The notes: generated by a model not told the origin, from the letters alone. Positions 8,103-37,079 are shown, counted from the first letter of the whole stretch. The stretch is DNA of 63,381 nucleotides, filler included, from Craspedostauros australis (GCA_030167865.1; 24 parts of 24 records of this genome joined end to end with filler, not necessarily neighbours in it), one strand, 5' to 3'. Numbers and translations: made by a program.

Positions 8103-9049
8103 CAGCTGCATTGCCGATGTTCCCAGGGTTCATGAACAAACCATTGCGATACATATGGGTGAACATGGTAAGCACCATCCTTTCCGCTAACTTCAAATCG
8201 ATTGAAGAGATCCTCGCAAACGCAGCCATTCTCAACCGACTACTGCAGGCAGCAGGGGAAGACGAGCTTTCCAAACTCGACTTACACTACATGCTCGGAG
8301 GATGCATGCAGATGCTCCTGCGCGAGCAACCGCGCGTCACACCATATGACACGGTCACCGGAGTTCATCGGAACAGCACAGTCCCAGCGGACTTCGCAGA
8401 ACTACCAAGCGATGATGGAATGGACGAAGATTGCAATCCATACAACGAAGATGGAGTCCACGAAGATGAAGAAGAAGACGGCCTCATGGATGAAATGGCT
8501 GCAGCAGCCGTGGAGCAGCTCCACGAGTTGAGCACCAGATACAAGGACAAGGTCAACAAGGACACCTGGCTCGCCGACAGCGGAGCTTTGTGTCACATCG
8601 TCAATTCAGACGCCGCTCTCTTCAACGTGCGGCACATCAAGTCCTTCGTCCAAGTGGGAGACAGCACGAAGCTGGACTCTCCCAAAATGGGATCCATTCG
8701 CTTGAAGGTCAAGCAACGAGACAACACTGGCCACATCATCCGGCTCGATGATGTAAAGTACACACCGAAAATGGCGGTGAACCTTTTCTCAATGAACAAG
8801 GCTCTGTACAACGGTTACCAGCTTGGTAACAACGGCATTCTGATGGACATCATCAACGGATCCGGAACAAAGATCGTGTTCGATCGAGTCTTCCCCACAT
8901 CCAACGGATTCATCACAGGAGTGCAGATGCATCCCATCATGCCAACGGACGATGGCAAGGCTTCCACAGCCATCATCAAGAACTCATCCAAGGAGATCAG
9001 CACGGTGAACTTGCATCGAATGCTCGGCCACGCGCCACTCGAACCATGA
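8069..9049 (+). pseudogene. pol: Copia pol fragment: linker domain, aspartic protease, start of integrase HHCC
   Basis: WLADSGALCH protease motif, VNLFS, LHRMLGH; 1-nt deletion at ~9044 relative to paralog (HAPLEAMQRTA). Confidence 0.9.
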
Positions 9050-11099
9050 AGCGGACAGCCGCCCAATACAGATGGAAGATCATCGGCGAGATGCCGGTAT
9101 GTCGCGACTGCGCGGTCGCGAACGCAAGAGTGAAGAATATTCCGAAGGCAACGATTCCAAGAGCAACTCGCCGCGGCGAACGTCTGTTCATTGACATTAA
9201 TTACACTAAACACATAAGCTTCGGAGAAAAACGCTACTGGGCCCTGATCGTGGACGACTGCTCGGATCACTGCTGGAGTTTCTTTCTCAAGAACAAAAGT
9301 GATCAACCAGGATACATCAAACGATTCGTCCAGACGATCAAATCACAGACTGGTGACCAACAGATCATCTTCCGAGGTGATAACAGCAGAGAGAACAAAT
9401 CCACGCAGGATACTCTCATCGATGCAGGACTCAACGTGAAATTCGAATTCACGGCATCGAACACGCCGCAACAGAACGGTAGAGTGGAACGCAAGTTCGC
9501 GTACCTCTATATCAAGATCCGCTCCATGCTCAATGGAGCACAGCTCAACGAAGAATATAGGCATGGCCTGTGGGCAGCTGCTGCGAGCACTGCCACTGCC
9601 ATCGCCAACATCACCGTAGCGAAGAATCAGAAAGAGTCACCACATCGACAATTCTTTGGCAACGATCCACCATATGCGGACGCACTCCGCATTTTCGGAG
9701 AGGTGGGTGTTGTGAAGACTACCTACGGCGGGATCACCGCCAAACTCAAGAATAGAGGAGAAGAGATGGTATTCATTGGGTGTGCACACCAACATGCATC
9801 AGGGGTCTACAACATGTACAGACCATCGACCAAGTCACTGATCTGCTCATGTGACATCAAGTGGCTCAACCAATCATACGGACAGTTCCGTGGCTGGGCA
9901 CCAGCACCAAACATATCCAGCGAAGCAGGAACGACGGACGCAGACGGCTTCACAACCATCGGACGGAAGGGAGCAATGCCAAGGACGGCGATGCGTCGAA
10001 CATCAGAAGCGAAGAGAGTATCTTTCGCTGGCACGAACAAGTATCACATCCTATCAGATAGCGACGATGAGGATGATGAGGATGATGAGGATGATGGAGT
10101 AGTGACTCAACTAAGTCATAACGACGAGGAAGATCGGAGCGAATCCAATCATGAGGATGACGAGATCACACCATCCGGCGACGAAGCCGACGATGACACA
10201 GGCGTCACTCCTCCAAATACACCAGTGAGGTCTACACATGACGTACCATCCAGACCTCCACCCAACAAACCAAACAAACGTGACATAGCTAGAAAGGAGA
10301 GAATCCGACGTCATGAAGCACGAGACAGGAAGGGAGAAGCTAATCCTAAGTCAACTACAGGGAAGAGTACTCCCAGAGCTCTGCGTGAGCTCGCAGACTT
10401 CAACGAACGAGGTCGAAAGGAGGAAGGCTATGAGAGCAAGTCATCATCCAATGACGATAGTGACGAACTGAGCGATGAGATAACCGACGAGTCCAACAAC
10501 GAAACTACAGATGACGAAGAAATCGAAGACAAAGATGAAGAGATCGAGATCACTCACCATAGCACAACAGGACTATACGGAATGAATGCAATCATCACCG
10601 AGGCACCAATGATCGACATCGGATTGTCAATGCAGGACGAGAACAAGGAACAAGAGAAGCACATCGAACCAACGACATTCAATGGAGCCTTCAATCATCC
10701 AGATCCCATCCATCAAAAGGGATATCGAGCAGCCATCAAGAAGGAGTTCGACTCCATGAACACACAAAAGGTGTACAGCAAGATCAAACGATACGCCATC
10801 CCACGCGGCCGCAGATGCTGCAAATGCAAATGGGTCTTCAAGCTGAAACGCGACGGCACACATCGAGCACGGCTCGTTGCATGTGGCAAATCACAAATCG
10901 CAGGAGTAGACTTCCAAGAGCATTACTCACCCGTCATCCATGACGTGACCTATCGGGTCATGATGGTGATCATGCTGATCAAGAAGATGGACTGCGCACT
11001 CGTCGATGTCGTAATGGCATTCCTACATGGAGACCTCGACAAGGAGATCTACATGAACTGTCCCAACGGGATGGATCATCAAGCAGACGAAGCCCTGAC
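9046..11099 (+). pseudogene. pol: Copia pol fragment: integrase core and N-terminal reverse transcriptase
   Basis: CRDC, LFIDI, IVDD, RGDNS, TPQQNGRVERK; RT CKWVFKLK..RARLVACG..QIAGVDF, VDVVMAFLHGDL. Confidence 0.93.
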
Positions 11100-11199
11100 N
11101 NNNNNNNNNNNNNNNNNNNNNNNNNNNNNNNNNNNNNNNNNNNTTAATTAATTAANNNNNNNNNNNNNNNNNNNNNNNNNNNNNNNNNNNNNNNNNNNN

Positions 11200-17662: not shown

Positions 17663-19594
17663 CTAGTAATCTGGAAGGCTGCCTGCCAGTTCATCGATCA
17701 CTTTGGGCATGATCTTGTCCACCTTCTTTCGTTTCTTCTCCACAAGAACCATTGGCATTGGCTTTGGGCAGGCCTGCAGAAAGTGCCCACGTTGGCCACA
17801 GCCTGGACAGATACGCACACCAGTCTTCGCACTTGACGATCGTGCACCGTTGTTGGTCTTCCGACGCTTCCGTCCGGGCTTCCCCACGATTCGCATTGGT
17901 GCCAACTCTTCCTCCACAAGATCATTTCTCATCACCCTGGCCCTTTTGATGTCGATGCTTTTCTTGCCATGCTGTTCCATCCACGTAGTAGTGTGCCATG
18001 CCTTGTCGTACCAGCCAATGTTGAGGACGTCAAAGACGCCAGGTTGGACATTGTTGAGGAGCATGGGAGCCTTGCGGAGTACTGCAGCAACGTGCCTGCA
18101 GGGTCTTTTGTACTCCCATGGGGCATTGCAGGTGCAGGTCATGGCGAAGTCCGAAGTTACCGTGACAGTCTCGGAAACGGCTGGATTCTTCGCGAGCATG
18201 ACACTTGCGTTGATTGCGGAGCCGTGCACAGTATTCACTTCCACGTTCAGTTTCCCACAGTTCTCCACACAAGAAGTCATGTCTTGAAGGCAGCGAGGTG
18301 TCAAGACATTTCCAGATTCGAAGCACTCCGTGGCCTTTGTCGCTTTGCCAATGCGCTTGTCCGCCATATACTTAAGGGTTGCTGCCACCAGGTTGCAGAT
18401 TGGCAGGCTTCTGATCTCTCCGATGGCTGCGTTAGCTTGCTCGCATGAATTGGAGGTGACAACGCCCAAGCGGTGTTGGTTAGGTTCACGAAGCAGCAGG
18501 TGGGTGAGACACTTTGTGCGCCGATGACAAAACCACTCGTGAAGCTTCGGATTCTGTTGTTGCACCTTGCTGAGGTAGAAATCTGCCAAGTTCTTGCTGC
18601 AGGCATACACGGCTTTCTGGAGGAGGCTTTTCTGCTCTGGAGTCATCTTCAGTTGCTTGTTCGCGACGGCGTTCTTTTGGAGGATGTGATACATGCAACG
18701 TGTGTGAGGAACGCCCCATTCGCTCAATGATGTCTGGACATCCGCGCTCTCGAGCCCTTTTGCGCCATCGCTCATCAGCATCCGCACAGTCGGAAAGCTT
18801 TCCTTCACTTGCGAAAGGAACCAATCCCAGTTGTCGGCTGATTCCACTGGCATGATGCCGAACGCAAGGATGACCAGCTGACGATTGGCATCATACGTGG
18901 TGAGGAAGCACAAGTAGCCTTTTGCTGCAGAGCGAAGGTGAGCTGCATCCACACACACCATCCCATCAAAATGATGGAACGTCTTAATGCTCCCACCAGG
19001 AGCGCAAAAGATTCGGCGCAATTGATGCCAAACAGCAACCTTGGAATCATCTTGTGCCAGAATTGTCTCTACCTTGTATACTCCTTCGGCATCATTGACG
19101 GCCAGTGCAGCCATGTAAGACTTGATTAGACGGCACTGGGCAAGGTGTTTCTCGATGGTAATCCCCTTCTCTTTGATGATGTTGTAGAGCTGTCCCTTTT
19201 TCAGGGTGACGGACAATTCCTCCTGCAGCATGTCCCCCAATTGCTTGCAGGCACCTGCCGCCGGTACCTGGTAGTTGCCAATGATGTTGGTGATCTCACA
19301 AAGGACTGCTGTCTTATATGCCCTCTGACGCGTGCAAGGGCCCAGACAGTTGTGACCAACAAATTCGGTGATCTTGATTGCTGTCCCAGCAAGACGCGCA
19401 CGGCATTGGAAGGGGCAGTCCTTACTGACAGAGCACACCAACTTCATGGACGTACCAGACCTATCGAGGACAACGTAGCCAGCACCAACCGACCAGCAAT
19501 GACACAAGACAGCTGCAGCTACATGTGTGAAGCCCACTCCTTCTTTGGTTGCTCTCTTGGCAAGGGTGATGAATGATTTTCCGTTGCTAGACAT
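17663..19594 (-). CDS. Mutator-like (MULE) transposase with SWIM finger and CCHC knuckle
   Basis: CPFQCRA..H.C, VCVDAAHL, ESADNWDWFL, MSDGAKGL, RCMYHI, TSNSCEQAN, CTCN..PCRH, CPGCGQRGH..C. Downstream 20-bp direct repeats (17367, 17398) and hairpin (17438-17455) may mark the element end. Confidence 0.93.
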   Translation of the reverse strand: MSSNGKSFITLAKRATKEGVGFTHVAAAVLCHCWSVGAGYVVLDRSGTSMKLVCSVSKDCPFQCRARLAGTAIKITEFVGHNCLGPCTRQRAYKTAVLCEITNIIGNYQVPAAGACKQLGDMLQEELSVTLKKGQLYNIIKEKGITIEKHLAQCRLIKSYMAALAVNDAEGVYKVETILAQDDSKVAVWHQLRRIFCAPGGSIKTFHHFDGMVCVDAAHLRSAAKGYLCFLTTYDANRQLVILAFGIMPVESADNWDWFLSQVKESFPTVRMLMSDGAKGLESADVQTSLSEWGVPHTRCMYHILQKNAVANKQLKMTPEQKSLLQKAVYACSKNLADFYLSKVQQQNPKLHEWFCHRRTKCLTHLLLREPNQHRLGVVTSNSCEQANAAIGEIRSLPICNLVAATLKYMADKRIGKATKATECFESGNVLTPRCLQDMTSCVENCGKLNVEVNTVHGSAINASVMLAKNPAVSETVTVTSDFAMTCTCNAPWEYKRPCRHVAAVLRKAPMLLNNVQPGVFDVLNIGWYDKAWHTTTWMEQHGKKSIDIKRARVMRNDLVEEELAPMRIVGKPGRKRRKTNNGARSSSAKTGVRICPGCGQRGHFLQACPKPMPMVLVEKKRKKVDKIMPKVIDELAGSLPDY

Positions 19595-20021
19595 GATGAG
19601 AGTTGTTTGTATGATGTATGTTGATGGATGTGATGGCTTCTACTCTGTGTTTTATGACATGTGAGTTACAAACAGAGGTTGTCACTCCTTGGGAAGCATC
19701 ACACCATTCCTATTCGATGCTGTGTACATCCATCGTACATCTGTTGCTCCGAATGGACACTGCATACCAGCGGACAAGTTATTCGCATCCGACTGCAGAG
19801 CTCGGAGACTTTTTGTACTTGCGTGGATCGACTGCATTGCGTACCACAGCCTCATCATGTTTGTCGTGCACGTCATTGCAAGCGAACAACTAGTCCACCA
19901 GCATGTACAGCATCCAATGAGNNNNNNNNNNNNNNNNNNNNNNNNNNNNNNNNNNNNNNNNNNNNTTAATTAATTAANNNNNNNNNNNNNNNNNNNNNNN
20001 NNNNNNNNNNNNNNNNNNNNN

Positions 20022-21956: not shown

Positions 21957-23346
21957 CATTGCCTGGACAGATGGTCGCGTACCAACCACCAATCGATCAC
22001 ACTGCCCAAATCATGGCAGTACTCCGTACCGACCCCAGATCCCCGATTACCTTCAGCACTCTCGCTACAATCCTCTTCCGTGGAGGCCTGACCCACATCA
22101 ACACGGTCCATCAGGTCAGCATCACATCCATGTTGAACGAATGCCTGGAGAAGATGGCAAACGACCGTCACCGTGATCACGCGTTCAGCGATGCCAGTGG
22201 GTATCATGAATGAAGCTCACCTGCCGCCATCTTGGGCGGCTGCATGAACCACACTACGATTAGCTTTCTTGCTTTCAGTCAACTCACATTCCGATGTGAG
22301 ATGAAGGGGAGTAAAAGAGCTAAACTAGTATCCACCTTAGTGAGAGACACTACAAATCACTCGACTCTATTGCAATCCAGTAGATCGAATGCTTGCCTCG
22401 TCCGCACCCACATTTGGGGACCAACCCAGATCATTGAAGCAGATCTTTGGCAACCCATGTCAGGAAAGTTGAAGGGTTCTGATAACCAAGTCACTGATCC
22501 CTCCGCCCCGCCAAAGCGCCGACGCATGAACAAGAGCAAACACTGTGAGGATGACGCCCCACGGAACGCGCATCAACGCCCATCACCTAGCAATCAACTC
22601 GGAGAATGGATCCTTCCCACGGTACTCAAGCTACGTGACCTGTACGCCAAGTCTTTTAGAGCAACATCGGAGATCCACCCCAAGGCGAAGAACCATAGCA
22701 ATAACACTCATAATCCGCATGTTTCTTCACCATCTACCAGTATTCTCAATTGACTACTTGTGGAACAGAAGACTCTCGTCCGGACCCGCTTGCCAATCAA
22801 GCCTCTACAGCCAACAACAGCTAACAAGACTCCAAGCCATTATGTTTAGGCTCTATTCGCAATTACGGCCTATAACCACTCGGAATGTACCCACCGGGGA
22901 CCATACCATAGCCCACCATGGTTGGTTTGTTCGCGCATTGATCATTTGTATGCAGGTCTCGCAGGGCACAATGGGACAGCCAGCGACTTCGGTATGCTGT
23001 CACTATCAAACCATTTCCTACCCTTTAATCCACTTTCAGCCACCACCNNNNNNNNNNNNNNNNNNNNNNNNNNNNNNNNNNNNNNNNNNNNTTAATTAAT
23101 TAANNNNNNNNNNNNNNNNNNNNNNNNNNNNNNNNNNNNNNNNNNNNACGCATGCTGTCGGTGCAATTCGGTGTCACGCAGGCCGCCCAGGATCAGTACG
23201 GTGAGTCAGGCAGGGTTGTGGCAAGCAAAGCGCTGTCTTTGCTACACAATGAAGTTTGCGGTTGTCGTCTTGTCTCATTTGTTTGATCTCTCATCGCACC
23301 GCAAACTCCTTTCTCACTCATCACCATTTGCAACAATGAAACAACC

Positions 23347-24069
23347 ATGGCCAACGCGTGGCGTGCGATGATATCCACCCCAACATTCCGGACTGCAGCC
23401 ATCGATCCAACCCAACTGCCACCCCTCGATGAGAATGGCGTTCCCAAGTACAAGGGCAAGAAACGGGGTCGCAAACCCAAGGCCAGGAAACGCAAGATCA
23501 ATCCCAATCGACGCAAGCGTCAGCAAACGGCGTACACGCTGTTCGTGCAGGAGACGTATCCAACAGTCAAGGCGCAGAATCCAGAATTGCCCAGCAATCA
23601 GCTGATTCGCATCGTCGCTGGACAATGGAAGACGGGAGTGGACGCCGAACAGAAGCAGGCATGGAAATTGCGCGCCTTGGCCATGCGGACGGACACGACC
23701 GCGGAGGATCATGGTGCAGAAGGAATGGCTGCCGTCGACACCCAAGTTGACGAGATGCCGGGTGATGGTAACACAAACGGCAACACAAACGGCAACAACG
23801 ACGTTGAGGAAGAGGAGCAGGAAGACGAAGGCAACGAAGGTGAGGAGATGGTGGATGCACGAATAGAAGACAGCGCTGATCATTCTCATCATCAGAACCA
23901 GGAAAGCACCGAGGATCATGATGCTGACGATCAGACCAATGACGGAGTATTGGTAGATCAGAACATTGGCGATGGTGATGATGATGGTCACGATGCTGAC
24001 AAAGATGGCGAAGAGCAGGTGGAAGACGACGGAAGCGAAAAGTGGATATTAACATCTCCGGCTATATAA
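23347..24069 (+). CDS. HMG-box protein with AT-hook-like motif and acidic tail
   Basis: KKRGRKPK; RRKRQQTAYTLFVQETYPTVKAQNPELPSNQLIRIVAGQWK HMG box; D/E-rich C-terminus. Confidence 0.88.
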   Translation: MANAWRAMISTPTFRTAAIDPTQLPPLDENGVPKYKGKKRGRKPKARKRKINPNRRKRQQTAYTLFVQETYPTVKAQNPELPSNQLIRIVAGQWKTGVDAEQKQAWKLRALAMRTDTTAEDHGAEGMAAVDTQVDEMPGDGNTNGNTNGNNDVEEEEQEDEGNEGEEMVDARIEDSADHSHHQNQESTEDHDADDQTNDGVLVDQNIGDGDDDGHDADKDGEEQVEDDGSEKWILTSPAI

Positions 24070-25462: not shown

Positions 25463-26982
25463 ACCTCACTCACTCGGCAAACCGATAGCACTAGTTGTAG
25501 AGTTTTTGCCGTGTTCCTTGTCAGATTGACTCGTGTTTGGATGATCTCGGGGGTATCGGTAATTATACCAACACCGCAGTTTCACAAGCCAGCTCGTGTT
25601 TAGTGACGTCACTGGTTGTTTGTTTCACGGAAAATTACAGTGGACTCACCAGACTCAGGATTCTTGNTGAAGGTTTGGAGGCATTCGTTGGAATTCTGTT
25701 GTGATTTCCCACACCCCAACAGCAAGAAAAGACCGTCACCAAGAAAAGAAACACAACATGACAATGGGGAAACAAAACAACACTCTGTGAGAACTGCCAA
25801 AAGTCATGGACGGCACTGCATCAACCACCAGTCCAATGCCAGATCCAAGCACATCAACGGAACCGCCATAGAAATATTGGTGGATGGGCAAGAGGGAGCT
25901 ATCAGAGCGGTTCATTTGAATCAGCGATAGTGAAACGAGCGAAACGTGCAAAAATGCGTCAAAAATGCATGTTGGGTACGGGCTGTGTGTGGACGATACA
26001 AGCCATTTAAACAACCATGGATGGGCAAGATGCATCAAGGGGATCAATATTAAGGGTCCTACAAATTTGAGGCTGAAAGAACGCCTGGAGGGTGTCGATG
26101 GAGGGGAACAAGTGGAGTGCAAGAGTTTTTGGGGTGGTGACAAAGCCCATCACGTGGCTTTGCTGGTGTGGTGGCACATGTGAACATCCGCCACATCGCC
26201 AACCCGCCCATACAAGATGTGTTCATTATCAAGTCAAGAATGGGGTTGGAGAAGTGGGGATCAATTACATTGAGTGGAAGAGGTTGGAACCAACCAAATG
26301 CTGCAGTCGCATTTTTTCGATACGAAGAAAAACTGACGATGGCATCAGCGTCGGGATGGATTCAAAACTGGAGATCCATCTTGAGGCGTTGTGGAATGCA
26401 TCAACGTGTACTCAGTTCATCGGGTATCAAGGGAGGCTGTGTGGGGGGAACAGAGATGGTTGTGAGCAGGAGATATGATCAGATGAAGCAGCTGCCTTCG
26501 GACCGTCCTTCATTTTCAAAAATGTTGGATTTCAGAAATGGGCTGCCAATGTGCATTGAACGGAGATCTGACGGTGCATGATTGGCAGTGATGGATACAT
26601 ATGGGGTATATGGAGACAATGAGACGCGCAGGTGGTCGAAACGAGACGGATATGGGCATCATCTTGGATGGCAAAGTGATGGCACCATGGTCCCATCCAG
26701 AATTTTGCGCCGCACACAATCCCACGTTGACAACAAAAATGATGTTAAATTTGAAGTCAATTTAAATTTAAGTTCAATATTCTTATTCGCAGCCAACGAT
26801 TTGTTCACATGGTACACTTATTTTTAATTATGAATGATGTGGTGTTGCGATATAGCATCATAAGCGTTTATTGGGATGGATTGCAATTTTGCTCTAGACT
26901 GGGCTACGCAACACGACTAATCCCACGCTGGAGGGCAAAAAGCTCTACAACTAGTGCTATCGCTTTGCCGAGTGAGTGAGGT
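25463..26982. mobile_element. Non-autonomous/decayed DNA element bounded by ~48-bp inverted repeats
   Basis: 25463-25510 is the reverse complement of 26934-26982 with about 2 differences. Confidence 0.7.
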
Positions 26983-27131
26983 GGAAGGTAGCTCGTATCG
27001 CAGAGCTGGCGAAGTGGAATGCTGATTCGTGGTTTGATCGAGGTTTTGCGTTTTGGGGACTGATGTAAGGAAGAGAAGTGGTCAAGCGGGTCGGCCACAA
27101 ACCGGTAGGGAAGCAGAACAGCAACCGAGCG

Positions 27132-27350
27132 TGTCAAAGATTGAAGGCACGCGCAGGCCACGCGCAGACCAAAGCAGCAGCAAAGCAGCGAAACAGCAGC
27201 GAAACAGCAGCGAAACGGGTCACTTCTGGACATAATTGACTGGTTGATACAGCCGACCCATACGACTCCAGGGCACCATCCGCAGGAAGAAGACGGGAAC
27301 ACAGCGGGAATGCAAGTCGTACGCACGACTCCCCAACAAGAGACCTGACA
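27132..27350 (+). repeat. Putative short LTR (TGTCA...TGACA)
   Basis: Inverted termini; followed by CAACGTTTATAACG, similar to the motif after the other 5' LTRs; single copy in window. Confidence 0.5.
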
Positions 27351-27556
27351 CAACGTTTATAACGGCCACACATGGGACGATCGCTTAAGTAATGACAATT
27401 CAAACCATGTGCGACAACGGCCATCTGATGGCAATGCGGAGCTCACAAAATGGACGACTGCGGCGACAAAACCGAAACACAAGCAAAAATTCGGGAACAC
27501 GGAATGCACTATCTTGAGTAGCATTACAAACCCGCCAGGAGAGATGCAATCGGATA

Positions 27557-30133
27557 GTGAAGCAAGATCAAGACCCGCTCCGAGCAAATGAGAAACAAAG
27601 GAGGCCAAACGCGAAGGATCGAGGAGTCCAAAACAGAAAGAGAGAAGAAGAGAGAGTAAACAACAAAGCAGAGAAGCGACGGAACAACGACGGTCGAAGC
27701 GCCCACAATTTGGAAAAGACAACAGAATTGTCACACCTTCGCTTCGAAAGACGCTTCCTCCAACGCTTGCTCAGGGGTAACCTAGCAACCTTTAACACTC
27801 TTCCACACCATCTTCACCGCCTTCTCGCCAACATCATGTCTCTCAACCTCTCTCACCTCCTCGCCTCCGAGCCTTCTGACCGTGTCGAAGCCGCAACCGG
27901 CCCACGCCCTGACGATCTGATCGAGGGCCTCACCGCCGTCTCCTCCATGGCTAGCCGTTCCTCCGCATCAGGAGGCCTCGTCACGGACTCCTTCCCCATT
28001 GCCATGAGCCTTGGAACCACCATCGGCCATGTGCATGCCAAAGAAGACACCTGCCTCGTCCGGCTCAGTGCCAAGTCCGAGGATGGTCACGTCCTTCTTT
28101 GCGGCGATCCAACCAGCGCCTGCGCCCGTCGCAACCATGGGCACCTCCGTTCCAACCCCACTCGCCGCGGTCTCCCGGGGGTGTACCAGTGCATTGACAC
28201 CACCACCAACAGTGGTATCGCCCGCCGCGATCTCGTGGAGGCCAGCTTCCAAAGCCCTGCCGCATACGAGGCCACGCGTGCCGCCACTCTTCGTGACATG
28301 GCACATGTCGCCACACGCGACACCCCACCGGCCTCCGAGCGCAACGACTCGGACACCCAGACTGTTGGAGTGGTCGGATTCGACCTGGACCGCAAGCCCG
28401 CGGCCAAACGCGGCATCGACGACACGCCGACGCCATCGCTTCCCCGTAAGGAGCATCGCGACGCTCCTCTTCCAACTCTCCGCGTTCCCCCGGCCTACCA
28501 CTCCAATCCCACACCGCTGGCCTTCAAGCAAGAGCGCCCTCAGGGGATCTCCGCCCCAGCAACCCGCATGACCGCCGCCGCCGCCATCCCGGATCCTATC
28601 CATTCGGCGGCAGACGAACTCATGCATGTGGTACGTCACCAAGCCGCGCTCAATCGCGAAAAGATGGAGACCCATCAACGCAAGCTGGATCAGACCAATC
28701 AAACTCTGATCCAGGCTCTCACCACTCAACAGGAGCAGATCAACCATCTCCTCCGTCTTGAGAGCGAGCGTCGGGAACAACCAGCCGCCGATCCGGCCCC
28801 TCCCACGGCTGCATGGTACGTAGTCACCCAAGGCAACCGACCAGGAGTCTACACCTCCCAAGCGGAGGCCTACGGGCACGCTGGAGCTCACCCCGATGCT
28901 AGCGTCCATCGCTTCGACACTCACGCCGAGGCCGAGAACCACCTGCGTGCCTCCATCACCACGGCTCGCCATCGCAACCGCACCTCGTCGCCCCTGGACC
29001 CTCATGCGCCCACGGACCTCCATCGCGCTCCGCCCCACGCCGGCCGCGGATTCTCCGGAGCAACGGCAACGCCAGCCACGGTGCCCACGGCCACGACACC
29101 CCCGGACAGCAACAATATGGGGGTGGAAGGATTTCTTGGTGAGGACACATCGCGCGGAGACAAAAAGAGCATCTTCGGAGAGAGCATCGACAATGAGAGA
29201 AAGATGATCCAGCACTTGGCTCCTCCGCATGCCAGTACTGAGGTCCAAACAGAGCTGGCCAAGGCAGCCATCGACGTCACCAGTCTACCAGGTAAGGTCA
29301 CCGACGAGAGAACGTCCATTGAAGAACTTGCCTCAGCCTTCGGCGACATCCGTAACCAGACCGCTCGCTCCGCCGGACTCATCGCCACCGACACCAATTG
29401 GAGAACCAAGACCCGACACGCCCTCGCACGCGTCAAGAATGAAGACGACCTCAGCGAACTCGCGGCTGACTTCAACAGCATCCGCGACGACGTCATGACC
29501 CAGTACCTCAACAACGTGGGTCACATCCTCCGCCACGCCTACTATACCGACGAACAAGTGGCTATCTACCAACAAGGTGGAGGATGGGTCGCTGTGGTTA
29601 AGCTCTTTCTTACCTACTACCACGAGCTCCTCCTCAAACTACAACAGGAGGCATTCAAGACCCAGGACGGTTGGAACGAATCGGCCAGCATCTACACGGA
29701 GTACTACTCCAAGGCCCTCTTCGACGCCCGTAACTTCGCGAGCTCCCGAAATCTGATGCTCTTCCGCACATATGTCATCGTGCGTGAAGGCGCCCGTATC
29801 GGATGGTGCAATGTCAAGATCTTGGAGAAATTCCAACACCGCATTTCGCTCCAGGGCACTACCCCCTCCACTCAACGCGAGGAGAGCGACGGCGCCAACG
29901 CAGACTCGCACAAGAAACGGTGCAAGCACTGCAATGGAACCAGTAAGGTGCACGAGATCCGGGACGGCGGGTGTCCGTTCGGATATCTTTTTAAGAAGAA
30001 GGTGGCGGTGGGCAAGGCCAAACAGGTCATGAAGAGTGTTGGCCAGGGCGAAAAAGCCCACAACGTGATCACGCGTATTCTGCAGGAAGCCATTTCGAAA
30101 CGCGGAGGAGGAGATGATGACGATGCTGCCTAA
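27557..30133 (+). CDS. Gag-like ORF1 (likely ATG 27836) with RNase H1 N-terminal/viroplasmin-like domain, coiled coil and Cys/His motifs
   Basis: WYVVTQGNRPGVYTSQAEA..HRFDTHAEAENHL at 28814-28945; C-terminal CKHC-x6-H-x6-C; position upstream of pol. Confidence 0.8.
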   Translation: MKQDQDPLRANEKQRRPNAKDRGVQNRKREEERVNNKAEKRRNNDGRSAHNLEKTTELSHLRFERRFLQRLLRGNLATFNTLPHHLHRLLANIMSLNLSHLLASEPSDRVEAATGPRPDDLIEGLTAVSSMASRSSASGGLVTDSFPIAMSLGTTIGHVHAKEDTCLVRLSAKSEDGHVLLCGDPTSACARRNHGHLRSNPTRRGLPGVYQCIDTTTNSGIARRDLVEASFQSPAAYEATRAATLRDMAHVATRDTPPASERNDSDTQTVGVVGFDLDRKPAAKRGIDDTPTPSLPRKEHRDAPLPTLRVPPAYHSNPTPLAFKQERPQGISAPATRMTAAAAIPDPIHSAADELMHVVRHQAALNREKMETHQRKLDQTNQTLIQALTTQQEQINHLLRLESERREQPAADPAPPTAAWYVVTQGNRPGVYTSQAEAYGHAGAHPDASVHRFDTHAEAENHLRASITTARHRNRTSSPLDPHAPTDLHRAPPHAGRGFSGATATPATVPTATTPPDSNNMGVEGFLGEDTSRGDKKSIFGESIDNERKMIQHLAPPHASTEVQTELAKAAIDVTSLPGKVTDERTSIEELASAFGDIRNQTARSAGLIATDTNWRTKTRHALARVKNEDDLSELAADFNSIRDDVMTQYLNNVGHILRHAYYTDEQVAIYQQGGGWVAVVKLFLTYYHELLLKLQQEAFKTQDGWNESASIYTEYYSKALFDARNFASSRNLMLFRTYVIVREGARIGWCNVKILEKFQHRISLQGTTPSTQREESDGANADSHKKRCKHCNGTSKVHEIRDGGCPFGYLFKKKVAVGKAKQVMKSVGQGEKAHNVITRILQEAISKRGGGDDDDAA

Positions 30134-30177
30134 CCCTGCGTTCGGCCCGTTTTATCTCTCTCTTTGCTGTCCACAAC

Positions 30178-33100
30178 TTGCGCTCGATCTCACTACCAAC
30201 AACAGACACACTCGACTACGCCACCTCACCTGCTCCACCCGACACCGGCTCGGTCGTCCCTACGGATGCTCAACTAAGCTCTAACTTAGAAGACATTCTT
30301 GCATTATCCAGCCAACGGTTGCCAGAGCCGCTCTCCTCTACCCTGCGATATGGCACACTGAACTTTGGCCTGCATATGACGTCGTCGGCCTGGCCGGCTT
30401 TCCAGCACGTCTTCTGCACCCATGACGAAGGCCTCCCGGCTGCTTTGCGATCTTATCCTGTGACCACTCATTACCTCGGGTCCACGGCGAGACTGTCACA
30501 CCGAGTGTTGCACAAACACTCAGTTGATGTCTTGGTCGTGTTTGGGATCAAGCAAATGGAATGGCGAGATTGGATCGGGCGCTGCCCATCTATATCCTGG
30601 CCACCCCTCGTCCTTGAAATATGGACGGGACCAGCTATGCCTTGGATCCAGGGAGCTGCCTCCAAGGGTGAATGCAAACGGTGGACAGACCTGGGCTACA
30701 CTACTCAAATCAAGACGATTCCCAACCTACGCGTGGGCGGAGTGGTACGAGTGTCCTATACGATGGTGGTACGATCGGCGACAACGTGGACGGCCTCTGG
30801 CATCGAATGGCCAGACCTCCAACCAGCATCGGAACAAAGCATGGCAAATTGCCTTCGCCACTGCGGGATTCCACGACAGTGCTATACAACGCAGAGTAAC
30901 ACCCAGATGGTCCATGACTGTGCAACATCTGCCATGCCGCTGGACCGGCTGGCCCTGATTCAAACGGATCGAGGCGTGCGCCGCCTCTTTCCAGACGAAG
31001 TGGGGAAAGCCCTGGGTAGCTCGCTCCCCGGAGAGGTGCTGCGGCGGGTGAAATGGCGGGTGCTTTTCCACACACCGTCCCAACACCTGCTGGAGTATCT
31101 CTCCACCCCGCTGGTGGCATTAGCCAACCACATCCACCGGTGGTCTGAGCACGGCAACCCAACCTCATCCAGACGACGACGACGACGAACACGACGAACA
31201 CGACAACCGGAGTCAACATCGCGACCTCCTACGACGACAGAACACGACGACTATACCTTCCATTGGGCGCCTCCCAACCTATCTCCAGGCGAAGCATGGT
31301 ATCAACGACGCGTCGCCAACCTACGACAAGCATGCAACGCTTATGGTGACCGGGCGGGATCTCTCTTCCAAGACGGCCTGCAAGACCTGCGCATACACCG
31401 CACCAACTACACGGCCACACACCCAGATCCCAAGTACTTGCGTGTCCTCTGGTGGGAGTTCCCGGCCCAACACTGGGATCATCTACGCGAAGGCAGCCCC
31501 ATGAACTTCCTGCGGGAACCAACGCCGGGGAACCACCCCAATACCGACATGACACCGGAACAACAACGAGTCGCAGCGGACTTCGTCGACGAGCTACTCA
31601 GCCTCGGTGTAGTAGAGCCGCAAGATCCTTCGCACCCGGTGGTGGTGAATGCACCTCTCTTCGCTCTGCCGAAGCCGATGCAACCTGACCAATGGCGTAT
31701 CATCGCCAACATGCGCGAAAATCACGCGAATGAGCACATCGGATCGGACCCGACGATCTTTCCGAAAAGCCGCGATATTCTGAAACAGATGTATCGCGGA
31801 GGATGGTCGGCTGTGGTTGATGCGTCGAAATATGTTTACCAATTTCGAACACGACCATCGGAACGACGGTACCTCGGCATCCAGCACCCAACCTCCGGAC
31901 GAATGTATCAATACGCTGGACTACCCATGGGGTCAAGTCAGTCCCCCGCCATCGCGTGCAAGTTCGGCACGGCTTTTCTTCGTTTACTACGCCAGCGGTC
32001 ACGTCACTTCCAGGGATCCCACACACCCAACATGTGGTGGTCTTCCTTCCGCTCGGAGAAAGCATACGACCACACCTTAGGTCAGGGTATCATCGCTATA
32101 GGATCCGATGGTCTACCAGCAGCCCTTGTATGGGCACACTGCGATGACTTTATCATCCACGGGCCAACCCACCAGAAGACAACAGCCGCACTCACTGCCT
32201 TCCTGGATCTCTCGGTCGACTGCGGGTTGCTCTGCCATCCGGGGAAGCTCACCCCACCAAGTCAAATTGTTAAATACACCGGCTTGATCTTCGACACCAC
32301 GACGACCCCACAGCTACGGATCCCAGCCCTCAAGAGAGACAAGATCATGGCCGTCATGGACTATGTCGAAGACCATTCCACGCGAGTCTCCAGACTCGCC
32401 CTCGCTGTTCTCGCAGGCATGCTCGAGAGTGTCGCCGAAGCCACGCTGTCGTATCTGGGACGCAACTACCTCCGTGCCCTCTACCATCTCGTCCACCCCA
32501 CCGCATGGAATCAGCCGGAGCTGCCCTACTTCAGTTACACGGCCATCGATCCCCCAGTGCAGCACGACCTGGGCTGGTGGCGGGCAGCACTCCTCAACGA
32601 CACCGCACGGAGCGGACGGGCCACACGCACAGGCGTCCTGGTCAGCAGCTTCGGAGACGGCAGCGGCACCGGAACCGGCGGCACCATCCTCTTCCAACAA
32701 CAAGCATCCCGTATGTGGATGGGAACATGGTCATTGCTCGTTGCTACCCGCCATTCTTCCAACTGGAAGGAGTTGCGGACTCTCCTCAGCACCCTTGAAC
32801 AGGTGGCACGGTCACCGGACTCTGCCGCAGAGGTCACCGGAGCAACATTCTTCTATTTCACCGACAACATGTGCACCTACTGCGTGGTGGACGGCGGCAC
32901 GTCTACCTCTCCCGAACTACACAAGCTGGTACGACGGATCAAGCAGCTCGAACTGCAACTGACCTGCCACCTACAGGTCATCCACATCCCAGGGACTGCA
33001 ATCATTACAGAAGGGACCGATGGTCTCAGCCGCGGGATCTGGGTCAATGCCGCACATCAGCGGCCGACATCGGAGCGGATCCTCACCGCTTGCCTCGCAC

Positions 33101-33564
33101 CAACGCCGCTCCGTCAGCGGCACGTGGCATCCATCGCCCGACTGGCCTTCCCACATTGCTCGACTGATCTCCAACTGCGGGCATGGGACAAGCCCTGGGA
33201 CCCAGAGCGATGCATGGACTGTATCACACTCTGGGCTCCCCCTCCGGAGTTGGCATACCAGCTCATCTACTTCCTGCTGGGCTGCTGGGCCGAGCAGCCG
33301 CTCCATACAGGATTCGTCATCCTCGTCCCTCGCGTGCTACAACGCACCTTCACTCGTCTGTCTCGTCATCTCGTCAGGGTTGGCGTGTTCACCAATCAGG
33401 ATTTGCTTATTCCTTCCTCCTCTCCTCTCAACATCCCTAACCTCATCCTTCGTGTCTCTCCTCATACGCGCTCTCTCACTCCTCCCAGATTGGACACTAC
33501 TCTCTATTCCTGGATTTGGCGTCACCACCAACGGATCGCCGAACAATTGCACGGGCTGCACTAG
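30178..33564 (+). CDS. pol: DIRS-type Pol: C5-MTase-like N-terminus, reverse transcriptase, RNase H, N6-adenine MTase-like C-terminus
   Basis: PLFALPK..WRII, VVDASKYVYQF, LPMGSSQSP, HCDD, KYTGLIFDT; RNase H FGDGSG..SNWKEL..FTDN..HIPG..DGLSRG; W..LWAPPP..FVILVP. Confidence 0.92.
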   Translation: MRSISLPTTDTLDYATSPAPPDTGSVVPTDAQLSSNLEDILALSSQRLPEPLSSTLRYGTLNFGLHMTSSAWPAFQHVFCTHDEGLPAALRSYPVTTHYLGSTARLSHRVLHKHSVDVLVVFGIKQMEWRDWIGRCPSISWPPLVLEIWTGPAMPWIQGAASKGECKRWTDLGYTTQIKTIPNLRVGGVVRVSYTMVVRSATTWTASGIEWPDLQPASEQSMANCLRHCGIPRQCYTTQSNTQMVHDCATSAMPLDRLALIQTDRGVRRLFPDEVGKALGSSLPGEVLRRVKWRVLFHTPSQHLLEYLSTPLVALANHIHRWSEHGNPTSSRRRRRRTRRTRQPESTSRPPTTTEHDDYTFHWAPPNLSPGEAWYQRRVANLRQACNAYGDRAGSLFQDGLQDLRIHRTNYTATHPDPKYLRVLWWEFPAQHWDHLREGSPMNFLREPTPGNHPNTDMTPEQQRVAADFVDELLSLGVVEPQDPSHPVVVNAPLFALPKPMQPDQWRIIANMRENHANEHIGSDPTIFPKSRDILKQMYRGGWSAVVDASKYVYQFRTRPSERRYLGIQHPTSGRMYQYAGLPMGSSQSPAIACKFGTAFLRLLRQRSRHFQGSHTPNMWWSSFRSEKAYDHTLGQGIIAIGSDGLPAALVWAHCDDFIIHGPTHQKTTAALTAFLDLSVDCGLLCHPGKLTPPSQIVKYTGLIFDTTTTPQLRIPALKRDKIMAVMDYVEDHSTRVSRLALAVLAGMLESVAEATLSYLGRNYLRALYHLVHPTAWNQPELPYFSYTAIDPPVQHDLGWWRAALLNDTARSGRATRTGVLVSSFGDGSGTGTGGTILFQQQASRMWMGTWSLLVATRHSSNWKELRTLLSTLEQVARSPDSAAEVTGATFFYFTDNMCTYCVVDGGTSTSPELHKLVRRIKQLELQLTCHLQVIHIPGTAIITEGTDGLSRGIWVNAAHQRPTSERILTACLAPTPLRQRHVASIARLAFPHCSTDLQLRAWDKPWDPERCMDCITLWAPPPELAYQLIYFLLGCWAEQPLHTGFVILVPRVLQRTFTRLSRHLVRVGVFTNQDLLIPSSSPLNIPNLILRVSPHTRSLTPPRLDTTLYSWIWRHHQRIAEQLHGLH

Positions 33565-35011
33565 GCCCATCAACCGGCGCACGACCGCCCATCAGTGCTA
33601 CTTCGCTGATACTGGCTTCACGCATGGCGGTCAACACTACCGGCCATGCCACACACGCTACCATAAGCTGTGCTGCCGAGTGGGCCCACCATTCCACACC
33701 AGGCTGCGCAATAGCAAGGGTCTGACTCTACCGCCCAACCTCGGGATCCTCGGGACCTTCGTGTGCGAGGCGTGCACCGTGCGTGTGCACGCCGGCCGAG
33801 AGTTGACTCCCGCTCCCATCGACGTCTACCTCCTTCGGCTCGAGCGGATGCGCATCATCGATCTGGCGCACAACTGGGCCACAGGCACCCTGGCCACCTA
33901 CGGCAGCAAGATCCGCGTACTGCGCCAATTCGGGGCCGACTACGGGGTCCCCACGCTGCAACCGCCGATTCTCAACAGCCCTCCCTACTCGGACTCTATA
34001 CCACTCATGTGGGCGCAGGAACACTACGCCACGCAAACCCCTGCCCGGCGCAACCGTCAAGACGACGGCGCCATCAAGTTCAGTACCGTGCGGGGTCTCC
34101 GGAGTGCTGCCTCGGCTTTTTGGACATGGAACCTGTGCCACACCCAACCGGATGCAGCCATGATGGACGCCAAGCAACGACCCGTCGTCGTAAATGCGTG
34201 TAGTCCCACCGACCACCTCAGCTACACCATGCTCACACAGGGCATGCGCGCACGCATGGGGGAGGATTCTCGGCCGTCCGCAGCGCTACTCGCGCGCCAT
34301 GTACGGTTCATGGACCACAGCTTCCAGCAGCAGTACCAACATGCTGCAACGACACACCAGCAACGCACCGCCGCCATGGCCGCCATCATCAACTTGGTGG
34401 GTTGGCTCAGGTGGCTCCAAGCTTCCGAGGCGTTCGGCATCACTTGGGAGGACGTCACCCTGCTCCATCCGCGCGACGCACGCAACAACGATCTTCCTGA
34501 CAATACGGGTGCGGTTCTGTTGCGCCTCGCGCTCCAAACCAAGTCAGACCGCAGCCGTCAGGCAGACGTCGTCGTGGCTTTCCGCACGGCCTCTGGTCTG
34601 AGCCTCGGTGATTGGTTGCTGCGAGCACATCGCCTCCGCGGCACGCGCAACCCTGCCGACTTCGTTGCCCAACATCCGTCCGGGCGACCCTGGACATCGC
34701 AGTTCTACCGCACCACGTTCGTGTATCCGTCTCTGCTCGAGTAGCAGGACCGTGGTGATCCCTTCCTGCGGTCTGCTATCGGGGCCCAACACATGCCGAT
34801 CCCGACAAGGTTCAACTCGTTTCACATGTATCGCCGCGGGGCAAGGACACACGTATCCCGACGACGTCCGGGCAGCGTGCGGGCGGCAACCAAGCTGGAG
34901 GTCTCCGAACATGGACGGTGGCGGCGCCAACACGCCAACGAGGACATGCCCACCGCGTATCTTCAGTGGCCGCTTGCCGACCGACTGGCGATCACCGCAC
35001 TCTGCATGTGA
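33020..35011 (+). pseudogene. Tyrosine recombinase with N-terminal PHD-like finger; in-frame TAG at 34742-34744
   Basis: TLATYGS, STVRGLRSA, WLQASE (R->Q), QTKSD; after the stop, in the same frame, FHMYRRG, HGRW, PTAY (ORF 34793-35011). Confidence 0.9.
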
Positions 35012-35162
35012 CCGCCCGGCGCTCACTTTTTCCCGTTGTTCCTCTTTTTCTTCCGCTTCTTTCTCTTTTGGGGGGGGACCCTCTTTTTCCGCCGCCTGCG
35101 ACAAAATCAGGGGGCACCAAGAGGAAGATACTCTCCCTCTGCAAGGGGGGATTCCAGCGCTC

Positions 35163-35684
35163 TGTTGAAATGTCCGGGTGCTGTAGACTTGTTGGTAAAA
35201 GTAGACTGTTTCTGTTGAGGGTTGGTAACCTTTTCTCTGTCAGTATTATGAGCTCTTCTATTTCCGATTCTGCTCTCTCTCTCTCTCTGCTGCTCTGCTT
35301 ATCGTGATCTCGTGTTGTACATCAGCCACTCTGTTGATCTTATCTTGTGTATCCATGTTGCTTCCGGCTATGGAGCAATCCCATTCGTACTCGGAACCAT
35401 TGGTGCATTCATCTGTGGTTCCATCTTGCTCACAGATTGCAATGTTGATGTTCCGAATCTGAACACATAAGGACACACATGGGGAGTCCTCCAATGTCAA
35501 GGTGTTTGCAAGTGTCATGTTCAATCTTGCATTCTGCACACTGGGGTAAAGTATTGAGACCACTACATTTGGTCACAGTTTCGGTCGTGGTACAGACACA
35601 CGATTCATCTGACCTCCGCGAGTTTTCAGTCTCGATTCGAGTCCCGCCTTCGTCTGGTCGGTGACGTCATGCCAAATCTCGACA
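35163..35684 (-). repeat. 3' LTR of minus-strand copia element
   Basis: Starts TGTCGAGAT right after the PPT; best matching end ATTTCAACA at 35163. Confidence 0.7.
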
Positions 35685-36979
35685 TCCTCCCTCTGTACCG
35701 CGTCGAACAAGTGGCGTGCGTTATCATACACTTCCTCCACAATGTCCTCCCAATATACGTACCCGTACACCGTACCGTGTCTGATGTTGTTCCCGTGATA
35801 TGTCTGCAGTTTCTCGGTGACATTCTTCGTGAGGATATCGCTTGCGTTGCTCTTTGACCGAACGAATCTCACTGTGATCTTTTGGTCTTGGTAGAGTTCT
35901 CGCACAAAGTGATAGCGAACGTCGATGTGTTTCGTCCTCTGGCTGACTTGCTGATTCTTCACAAGGTAAATCGCCCCCGTGTTATCCTCAAGTATGATGC
36001 CTGGTGTTGTGATGTGGAGTATCTCCTCCATGAGCATTTGGATGAACTTGACTTCCTGTGCTCCAATGCTGAGAGAGACGTACTCTGCTTCGGTGCTTGA
36101 CAGAGTGGTTGCTTGTTGCGTTTTGGAGATCCAGCTAACGATGCTGCCTCCAATGGTGTGGATTCCTCCGCTGACACTTCGGCGTGTATCCTTGTCTGTG
36201 GCGTAGTTGCTGTCCACCATGGATAACACCCGTAGTTCCTTTGGTTTCCGGTAGGTGAGCTTGATGTCATCACCGAGGTAAAGAAGATACCCAACGAAGC
36301 GCTCCAATTCCTTCCATTGTTGCTCTCCTGGGTTCGAGAAGTGTTTGGTGAGCTCTCGAGCTGCGTTTGCTCCTTCTGGTAGTAGCTTCGTCACAAGATA
36401 CATGATCTGTCCCACAATCTTCCGGTACATGTGGTGATGGATGGGTTCCCCTTCATGTTTCATCATGGTGACTCCTGGTGTACCTGGTGTGTTGTACTTC
36501 TTCGCTGGTCTACCGCTGTGTCTCTCGAATGTTGAGGTGATCTTCTGCACAAGGTGATTCATTCTTGCCTCGATGTACTCCTGTCCATTCTCGTCACGAT
36601 GGAACTCGTACATGATTCCAAGATGCTTTTTGAGCTTCCCTTCGTCAGTGAATTGGAAATGCTTTCCGACTTCTGCCTTGAACCAGTTGACCTCGGATTG
36701 TTCACCGATCAGCATGGTGTCATCCACGAAGCACATGACGATGAGTGTTGTCTCGCCATTGACCCGCTTGTAGAAAACGCATGGGTCCGCCTTGGATTGG
36801 GTGAGTCCGGCGTTGACCATCATGTCATGGTAGGTCTTGAACCACTTGATGGCTGCGTCGACATTGCCATACATCGACTTGAGGAGCATGAAGACATTGT
36901 CCGTTCTGTCTTGCTTGGTGACAAAGCCCAGTTCATGTAGTCCCTCAGGTATCTCGATGAAGGTTGGTCGGTCCATGGT
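35573..36979 (-). CDS. pol: Copia RT C-terminus and RNase H (5' partial), reading into the LTR
   Basis: LLKSMYG, DPCVF, FVDD, VDSNYATDKDTRRSVSG, STEAEY, EDNTGAI, TKHIDVRYHFVRE, DILTKN. Confidence 0.95.
   Translation of the reverse strand, partial: TMDRPTFIEIPEGLHELGFVTKQDRTDNVFMLLKSMYGNVDAAIKWFKTYHDMMVNAGLTQSKADPCVFYKRVNGETTLIVMCFVDDTMLIGEQSEVNWFKAEVGKHFQFTDEGKLKKHLGIMYEFHRDENGQEYIEARMNHLVQKITSTFERHSGRPAKKYNTPGTPGVTMMKHEGEPIHHHMYRKIVGQIMYLVTKLLPEGANAARELTKHFSNPGEQQWKELERFVGYLLYLGDDIKLTYRKPKELRVLSMVDSNYATDKDTRRSVSGGIHTIGGSIVSWISKTQQATTLSSTEAEYVSLSIGAQEVKFIQMLMEEILHITTPGIILEDNTGAIYLVKNQQVSQRTKHIDVRYHFVRELYQDQKITVRFVRSKSNASDILTKNVTEKLQTYHGNNIRHGTVYGYVYWEDIVEEVYDNARHLFDAVQREDVEIWHDVTDQTKAGLESRLKTRGGQMNRVSVPRPKL
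35685..35694 (-). promoter_or_regulatory. Polypurine tract AGAGGGAGGA
   Basis: Purine run abutting the TG start of the LTR, after RNase H. Confidence 0.75.
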
Positions 36980-37079
36980 NNNNNNNNNNNNNNNNNNNNN
37001 NNNNNNNNNNNNNNNNNNNNNNNTTAATTAATTAANNNNNNNNNNNNNNNNNNNNNNNNNNNNNNNNNNNNNNNNNNNN

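Follow-up and report, generated by a model that had tools for sequence, protein, structure and literature searches.

We analysed a stretch of 63,381 nucleotides (nt) of Craspedostauros australis DNA (GCA_030167865.1), composed of 24 parts joined with filler and referred to here as the window, in which a region of the plus strand at 27557..35162 carries a retrotransposon-like element. The element, all features of which lie on this strand, consists of three long open reading frames (ORFs) for a gag-like protein (ORF1), Pol (ORF2) and a zinc-finger tyrosine recombinase (YR; ORF3). ORF1 (27836..30133) encodes 765 amino acids (aa), was delimited by ORF calling and is matched by tblastn in relatives. 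ORF2 (30121..33564) is open from 30121, and its first ATG at 30376 begins a product of 1062 aa. ORF3 (33485..35011) has conserved coding from a DWT/GWT motif at 33485; its frame is open from 32963, the ORF called there spans 33020-34744 and overlaps ORF2, and the same frame continues past a TAG at 34742-34744 to 35011. The G+C content is 60% across the coding part versus about 50-52% in the flanks. A Pfam scan of the element ORFs matched no protease or DDE integrase family, and a Pol with reverse transcriptase (RT) and ribonuclease H (RNase H) beside a tyrosine recombinase, without these families, is the make-up of the DIRS order. The DIRS-class organisation proposed in the initial annotation is therefore upheld. 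We consider it highly probable that the region holds a tyrosine-recombinase (DIRS-order) retrotransposon in a decayed, non-autonomous state and with the PAT-like order gag-like/Pol/YR, that it belongs to a large unnamed family in environmental eukaryote assemblies, and that this family is related to elements whose Pol opens with a genuine C5 methyltransferase (SymbioDIRS-Dnmt3 type).

Relatives of the element are numerous. A word-indexed search with ORF2 recovered 36 relatives at E <= 0.001, the best of them 44% identical over the full length, and an exhaustive search recovered 2496 cluster representatives at E <= 0.001 and 1138 at <= 1e-10. With 289 representatives at E <= 1e-30, the family is abundant in environmental assemblies yet unnamed, and its description would improve the annotation of protist transposons. 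A scan of metagenome contigs gave 58 loci, and all 23 loci of at least 5 kb match the element. The order ORF1-ORF2-ORF3 on one strand is found in eight of these 23; ten more have ORF2 followed by ORF3, two have ORF2, ORF3 and then ORF1 further along, one has ORF1 and ORF2, and two hold pieces of ORF2 alone. The match to ORF3 is unbroken over at least 85% of its length in 21 loci. The three ORFs are thus real, and the gag-like, RT-RNase H and YR order first noted in the window recurs in the metagenome contigs. Downstream of the recombinase gene, no fourth ORF is conserved beyond close relatives; only 561 nt separate the end of the window ORF3 from an opposite-strand Copia fragment, and these 561 nt match nothing.

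The window copy itself carries several defects. The in-frame TAG of the recombinase gene (34742..34744) is a sense codon in 19 of 19 aligned relatives, and the catalytic Arg-I position is Gln (CAA, 34418-34420) versus the catalytic Arg of all 19. In Pol, the first ATG comes only after a conserved N-terminal motif (YGT...G, at 30349), no ATG occurs in the 85 open codons ahead of this conserved start, and the relatives have starts of their own. Because of the in-frame stop, the Gln at Arg-I and the missing start codon for the conserved Pol N-terminus, we regard the copy as non-autonomous; as judged from its sequence, it is dead and would be incapable of moving by itself.

Domains of Pol

The RT lies at 31363..32475, with the Pfam RVT_1 core at aa 453-638 and the motif CDDF, the motif ending in DD, at 32140. 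RVT_1 matched the window ORF2 with an E of 3.4e-5, which is under the Pfam cut-off, and matched 20 of 20 aligned members; a family profile matched the foamy-virus, Ty3 and MMLV RTs in the PDB. RNase H follows at 32626..33045 (GDGSG...NWKEL...FTDN...DGLSRG), and its fold was recovered in structure searches of the model.

A degenerate C5-cytosine-methyltransferase-like domain, here called the DNA methyltransferase (DNMT)-like domain, precedes the RT at 30349..31155. The first about 260 residues of Pol are conserved in the family, together with about 10 residues upstream of the first ATG. Landmarks in the window are VDVLVV at 30523, a motif VI-like LVLEIW at 30607 and a motif IX-like RRLFPDE at 30979. 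The full-length Pol profile (A1) matched M.HhaI with an E of 7e-5 (profile positions 108-290 to chain residues 104-316), other C5 methyltransferases scoring weaker, and a profile of the N-terminal region (A5) matched the same enzyme with an E of 1.8e-4. PF00145 had no match in the window ORF2 and weak matches in two of 20 members. Among 26 further relatives scanned, two (P0174 and P0181), which are 31-32% identical to ORF2, carry a clear PF00145 upstream of the RT (2e-21 and 5.7e-24, respectively), and hhalign aligned the family profile with P0181 at probability 100, the alignment reaching from DNMT motif VI to where Pol ends. The family has apparent counterparts to the motif I (partly), motif VI (x-E-x-W), motif VIII (Q-x-R) and R-R-L-x-x-x-E-L-A-K-G-L-G segment of these two proteins, and its VI-like, VIII-like and R-R-L-x-x-x-E-x-A-x-x-x-G segments can be aligned with M.HhaI as well. 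The motif IV Pro-Cys and the motif X Gly-Asn of P0174 and P0181 have no counterpart in 17 of 17 family members including the window copy, in which no Pro-Cys motif IV follows VDVLVV and the motif VIII Gln and Arg are additionally replaced. The suggestion of a C5-methyltransferase-like region before the RT is hence borne out by the M.HhaI profile matches and by the distant relatives with a true PF00145, for a domain that lacks the catalytic Pro-Cys. The ratio of nonsynonymous to synonymous substitution rates (dN/dS) of the domain is 0.14 between the loci L022 and L023 (82% identical, the only suitable pair, with synonymous sites near saturation), which is indicative of constraint; between L029 and L031, pN is 0.33 vs a pS of 0.80. 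Going by these motifs, the domain before the RT is methyltransferase-derived and predicted to be catalytically dead.

Pol ends in a domain at 33085..33471 with a predicted class-I methyltransferase-like fold (Pol aa about 900-1040, modelled with a predicted local distance difference test score (pLDDT) of about 90). In a fold search of 48,161 representative chains, those of the top 50 matches that aligned solely to this domain were all S-adenosylmethionine (SAM)-dependent methyltransferases with middling scores and, except for Mtq2, adenine-N6 or related RNA enzymes. Ranked by language-model features, the closest Atlas cluster (score 0.89, a lead only) is eukaryotic, with Nematoda as the commonest taxon and PF05869 Dam in 11% of its members. 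No Pfam methyltransferase family was matched by the domain in 27 members, even at E <= 10. The family consensus W-x-P-P-P-E (W-A-P-P-P-E at 33235 in the window) follows a beta strand and stands where N6 methyltransferases carry (D/N)PP(Y/F), which is not present, and the domain is without a recognisable SAM-binding half. Its dN/dS between L022 and L023 is 0.22 (59 codons). In DIRS1-type pols, a methyltransferase domain follows RNase H according to the available text of PMC3266345. We assign the C-terminal domain, with moderate confidence and from its modelled fold, to a degenerate remnant of this DIRS-type domain. Of the N6-methyltransferase-like region initially annotated after RNase H, an adenine-N6 methyltransferase-like fold therefore survives at middling scores, and the expected motif (PPPE in place of a DPPY-type sequence) and a Pfam match do not. 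C5-derived and N6-like modules can, by this account, coexist in one YR-type Pol.

Gag-like protein, recombinase and their expression

ORF1 contains a hybrid-binding domain of the RNase H1 N-terminal type (Cauli_VI, PF01693) at 28814..28939 (ORF1 aa 327-368). The Pfam match covers profile positions 2-43 of 44 with an E of 1e-5 and 26.1 bits versus a gathering cut-off of 21, which substantiates the RNA:DNA hybrid-binding-like domain previously suspected in Gag. PF01693 was also matched in ORF1 of L010 (1e-5) and L033 (4e-3), that is, in two of 13 relatives' ORF1-like frames, and a hidden Markov model (HMM) built from the window, L010 and L033 matched, among 2074 six-frame ORFs, the same place in ORF1 of L029 (2e-5), L031 (1e-3) and L028 (0.011). 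These matches are indicative that the hybrid-binding domain recurs in part of the family. In the literature searched, no paper couples Cauli_VI with retrotransposons, and among the 15 listed of 118 matching papers none brings a hybrid-binding domain together with YR retrotransposons. By eye only, ORF1 of L003, L005, L006 and L021 seems to hold two divergent hybrid-binding-like beta-beta-alpha units (alignment A3, columns about 320-375 and 575-650), which the three-sequence HMM did not recover.

The remainder of ORF1 includes an N-terminal Cys/His cluster (Cys73, Cys89 and Cys96 in alignment A3), a conserved core at aa ~435-680 that gave a tblastn match in 12 of 23 loci, and a C-terminal zinc-knuckle-like motif at 29921..29977 (Cys696, Cys699, His, Cys713-Pro714). 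In this CxxC...H...CP knuckle, C696, C699, C713 and P714 are nearly invariant in A3. No Gag family in Pfam was matched by the window ORF1 or by the ORF1 frames of relatives, and the protein is termed gag-like from its position, conservation and nucleic-acid-binding features only.

The tyrosine-recombinase catalytic domain of ORF3 lies at 34265..35008 and reads, in order, Gln at Arg-I, Lys, the TAG, then HxxR, HGRW and Tyr past the stop. ORF3 was aligned with 19 of 21 intact relatives (left out were L027, which is partial, and L010, which is near-identical to L030), and the columns of the catalytic Arg, Lys, His-x-x-Arg, His/Trp and Tyr are conserved. A structure search recovered the recombinase fold for the ORF3 model, and it is on fold and motifs that the protein is assigned as a tyrosine recombinase.

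Upstream of the catalytic domain, ORF3 encodes a C4-H-C3 zinc-binding module at 33548..33775 (Cys12, Cys15, Cys28, Cys45, His50, Cys53, Cys84 and Cys87 of the segment starting at 33515), modelled with a pLDDT of about 90. The ligands of the window copy are spaced C-x2-C-x12-C-x16-C-x4-H-x2-C-x30-C-x2-C. All eight ligand columns are invariant in the window and the 19 aligned relatives, the fifth being His in 16 and Cys in four. The third and fourth ligands are separated by 16 residues in the window and by about 14-20 in relatives; the PHD consensus has two to four residues between its third and fourth Cys. Family matches of the module are weak and mixed (B-box, E 0.07; PHD_NSD in two of 21 rows, best E 0.098; also C1 and RING), an Atlas search with it gave no usable match, and the Foldseek matches of both models were confined to RNase H and recombinases, for the larger domains. 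What remains of the PHD-like finger once proposed for the recombinase is accordingly a set of eight invariant C4-H/C-C3 ligands, which agrees with the ligands of a PHD finger; membership of the PHD family is unproven, given the much longer third-to-fourth spacing and the weak family matches. Gag and recombinase themselves thus appear to have gained nucleic-acid- and zinc-binding modules.

Relative to ORF2, the frame of ORF3 is +1 in each of 20 relatives and, from the coordinates, in the window. Its conserved coding opens 80 nt before the ORF2 stop, and the first zinc Cys lies 13-193 nt ahead of that stop. At 33440-33564 in the window, and at the same place in L001-L046, the sequence is dual coding, with the R-L-D bases of Pol also encoding a +1-frame G-W-T-x-L-P. 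The ORF2 third-position bases are constant at the overlap and the third position of the +1-frame Gly codon varies, a substitution pattern more in keeping with constraint by the +1 frame. The probable route to ORF3 is a Pol-YR fusion protein produced by +1 frameshifting near the R-L-D/G-W-T site. Separate translation of ORF3 without frameshifting, whether from a subgenomic or spliced RNA, through re-initiation or at a start codon other than AUG, is a serious contender at somewhat less than even chances. It would agree with the Met that 11 of 20 relatives have ahead of the zinc module, in frame with ORF3, and with the lack of a shared slippery site or heptamer in the aligned overlap; DIRS elements are also known, in the available texts of PMC3266345 and PMC6681497, for long overlaps between ORFs whose mode of expression is unknown. 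It is harder to reconcile with the remaining nine of 20 relatives, which have no Met in the ORF3 frame before the zinc module, with L001, L007 and L046, in which the +1 frame opens merely 4-10 codons before G-W-T, and with the +1 relation in all 20. With its fixed +1 arrangement of ORF2 and ORF3, the family lends itself to testing how the recombinase of DIRS-type elements is expressed.

Affinities and competing explanations

No direct or inverted terminal repeat beyond chance was detected for the window copy within 26000-37000, and the flanks at 35000-35700 and 26000-27900 have no counterpart elsewhere in the window apart from a 49-nt inverted match (96%) of 26934-26982 with 25510-25463 (25463-25510 in plus-strand order), which lies upstream of the element and beside an N-masked stretch. 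Among the relatives, L001 has direct repeats of split type, in which A at 1-130 recurs at 8010-8139 (99%) and B at 7224-7350 recurs at 8154-8280 (100%), with 659 nt between B1 and A2; no inverted repeats were found in 15 relative contigs. Identical contig ends were observed in L021 (1-127 and 10222-10348) and L022 (1-111 and 9041-9151), for units of about 10.2 and 9.0 kb, and could reflect tandem copies of the element, circular DNA forms of it or direct repeats at its termini.

The order gag-like, RT/RNase H, YR is that of PAT-like elements. From the available text of PMC6681497, these also share with the present family the lack of inverted terminal repeats and, possibly, a methyltransferase-type domain beside RT/RNase H in Pol and split direct repeats A1 ... 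B1 A2 B2 such as those of L001; the family differs by an additional DNMT-like domain before the RT and by a post-RNase H domain that matches no Dam Pfam model. DIRS1-like elements, as far as described in PMC3266345, likewise have three ORFs (GAG, YR, and a pol with RT, RNase H and methyltransferase) and a pol/YR overlap, with the catalytic part of YR in the non-overlapping 3' end. Unlike the element studied here, they have inverted terminal repeats and an internal complementary region, with the YR ORF second and pol third; here inverted repeats were found neither in the window (26000-37000) nor in the 15 relatives, and YR follows Pol in the window and in 20 of the 23 loci, which hold both. The methyltransferase-fold domain after RNase H argues weakly against membership among the Ngaro-like elements, which are characterised by the lack of a methyltransferase domain; VIPER-like elements are known from kinetoplastids and form an RT/RH/YR clade of their own.

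Among the closest published architectures is SymbioDIRS-Dnmt3 of Symbiodinium (de Mendoza et al., 2018), a DIRS-like element whose Pol, in the part of PMC5890265 available, includes a Dnmt3-type domain, whose recombinase has an ORF to itself and whose repeats are arranged A-B-A-B; the same paper also reports de novo CG methylation by a retrotransposon DNMT. Common to both are a C5-methyltransferase-homologous domain joined to RT and RNase H in the Pol ORF, a separate tyrosine-recombinase ORF and, going by L001, direct A...B-A-B repeats. In the present family, however, the DNMT-like domain is without motifs IV and X (17 of 17) and below the Pfam threshold, and the hybrid-binding domain of ORF1, the zinc module of the recombinase and the post-RNase H methyltransferase fold are not among the features described in that part of the report. 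P0174 and P0181, two unnamed database Pols with a true PF00145, align to ORF2 from motif VI to the C-terminal domain. Dam-like domains are known in DIRS elements (PMC5890265; 10.64898/2026.05.21.726589, both in part). Adenine- and cytosine-methyltransferase-type domains and a chromatin-reader-type module in one element are also shared with the EpiLTRs, or DAM-retrotransposons (bioRxiv 10.64898/2026.05.21.726589), before which, going by the available text, adenine and cytosine methyltransferases together with a chromodomain were undescribed. These are chromovirus-like long terminal repeat (LTR) elements of Euglena with detectable DAM and DNMT and a chromodomain, whereas the present family has a YR backbone, degenerate domains and a zinc finger on the recombinase.

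Interest in retrotransposons that have captured epigenetic enzymes is recent; elements of Symbiodinium and Klebsormidium carry DNMTs, and Dam-type domains occur in elements of both the DIRS and the LTR kind. The earlier view that the combination of domains is unlike described elements has accordingly to be narrowed, in that DIRS Pols with a DNMT have been published from Symbiodinium, and DIRS1 and PAT as a rule have a methyltransferase behind RNase H; the rest appears new. What appears to be new is a DNMT-like domain that is degenerate yet conserved across a large family, beside a methyltransferase-fold domain in one YR-type Pol; the ORF1 hybrid-binding domain and the recombinase's invariant zinc module appear new as well.

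Several points weigh against our reading of the region as a decayed PAT-like member of this family. Its superfamily placement is based on gene order and on repeats in one relative, L001, and those repeats touch both contig ends, one being exactly 127 nt, and may partly reflect assembly. ORF3 gave no Phage_integrase match in 21 rows in the Pfam search and no significant sequence match in the PDB, the best being the Midline-1 B-box (E 0.07). The dN/dS estimate comes from a single pair, the loss of methyltransferase catalysis is read from motifs only and the frameshift from frame statistics only, and the upstream Met of 11 relatives speaks for another route to ORF3.

The least probable of the readings we considered is that the copy is an intact, currently active member of a diatom lineage of YR retrotransposons not described before. 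In its favour, ORF1 and ORF2 are both long and run without a break, many relatives have intact ORFs, and CpG observed/expected is 1.0 with no CpG depletion seen, so there is no sign of long methylation-driven decay; no such diatom element was found, moreover, in the available texts of the DIRS and diatom literature searched (including PMC2806351 and PMC9998398; supplements not covered). This is outweighed by the in-frame stop and the Gln at Arg-I in ORF3, by the absence of an ATG before the conserved Pol N-terminus and of terminal repeats, and, as regards an undescribed lineage, by the DNMT-in-Pol DIRS architecture already published for Symbiodinium. It is very unlikely, too, that the methyltransferase and zinc-finger resemblances are due to chance or fold commonality in an ordinary Ngaro- or PAT-type element with lineage-specific linkers: in the N-terminal region the only matches of two independent family profiles are C5 methyltransferases, with an apparently shared motif order VI-VIII-IX, homologous Pols carry a bona fide PF00145 at the same position, the top-50 fold matches restricted to the C-terminal domain are without exception SAM-dependent methyltransferases (all but Mtq2 being adenine-N6 or related RNA enzymes), and the eight zinc ligands are invariant among sequences only 32-48% identical.

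Decidedly unlikely is the idea that the methyltransferase-derived domains retain enzyme activity, either through non-canonical residues or with RNA or the complementary DNA (cDNA) as substrate, and that the element methylates itself as proposed for SymbioDIRS-Dnmt3. Both domains are under purifying selection, most members keep the Glu of motif VI and part of motif VIII (Q-x-R), some have a G-x-G at motif I, and PMC5890265 reports CG methylation set de novo by a retrotransposon DNMT. Against such activity stand the absence of the nucleophilic motif IV Cys in 17 of 17 members and of motif X, the PPPE in place of (D/N)PP(Y/F) and the lack of a recognisable SAM-binding half in the C-terminal domain and, in the window copy, the replacement of even the Gln and Arg of motif VIII.

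It would seem that a cytosine methyltransferase, once captured, can lose its catalytic cysteine yet stay conserved, which points to a role other than catalysis, such as DNA binding, base flipping or assembly. If the element is the decayed YR retrotransposon that we favour, its intact relatives would, by analogy with PAT, Ngaro and DIRS models, be transcribed, the gag-like protein would bind the RNA and the RNA:DNA replication intermediate, Pol would make cDNA, the split direct repeats would allow a closed or complete DNA intermediate, and the recombinase would insert it by site-specific recombination. The two methyltransferase-derived domains would no longer methylate and would be kept as DNA- or chromatin-binding or structural modules, and the recombinase may be directed to DNA or chromatin by its zinc module. 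A bolder proposal, which we regard as doubtful, is that a widespread YR-retrotransposon family has turned C5-type and N6-type methyltransferases into selected non-catalytic modules which, with the hybrid-binding Gag and the PHD-like recombinase finger, form an "epigenetic reader" toolkit that senses chromatin marks and bases that are methylated or flipped, and in this way guides or protects the cDNA; the recombinase would be made in one protein with Pol via a conserved +1 frameshift at the dual-coding site.

Surroundings of the element in the window

The element lies in an N-free stretch of 11.5 kb (25668-36979) with no N run inside it; outside the element, paired runs of 44 N with 12 bases between them occur roughly every 1.2-3 kb and look like masks or scaffolding marks rather than biological features. 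Antisense and alternative-frame ORFs within or overlapping the element at 27971-29284 (-), 34547-35239 (-) and 32288-32959 (+) match no Pfam family and were taken as by-products of the 60% G+C. On the 5' side of ORF1, within a purine-rich stretch, the 11-nt unit AGCAGCGAAAC is repeated in tandem at 27173-27216.

Outside the element, the window is transposon-rich. Several pieces of Copia type (Retrotran_gag_2, zf-CCHC, Pol_BBD, rve, RVT_2) were observed at 35573-37027 (-), 1896-3368 (+), 6531-11100 (+) and 58466-60856 (+), the one at 35573-37027 adjoining the element on its 3' side, in the opposite orientation. A G+C-rich segment at 54108-55412 (57.5% in 54001-56000) has long overlapping open frames on both strands without a Pfam family and is possibly another decayed G+C-rich element. 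A frame of 658 aa at 17666-19639 (-) contains a MULE / Mutator transposase domain, and possible host genes are an HMG-box frame at 23287-24066 (+) and a frame with MoCF_biosynth and DUF1244 at 56324-57445 (-).

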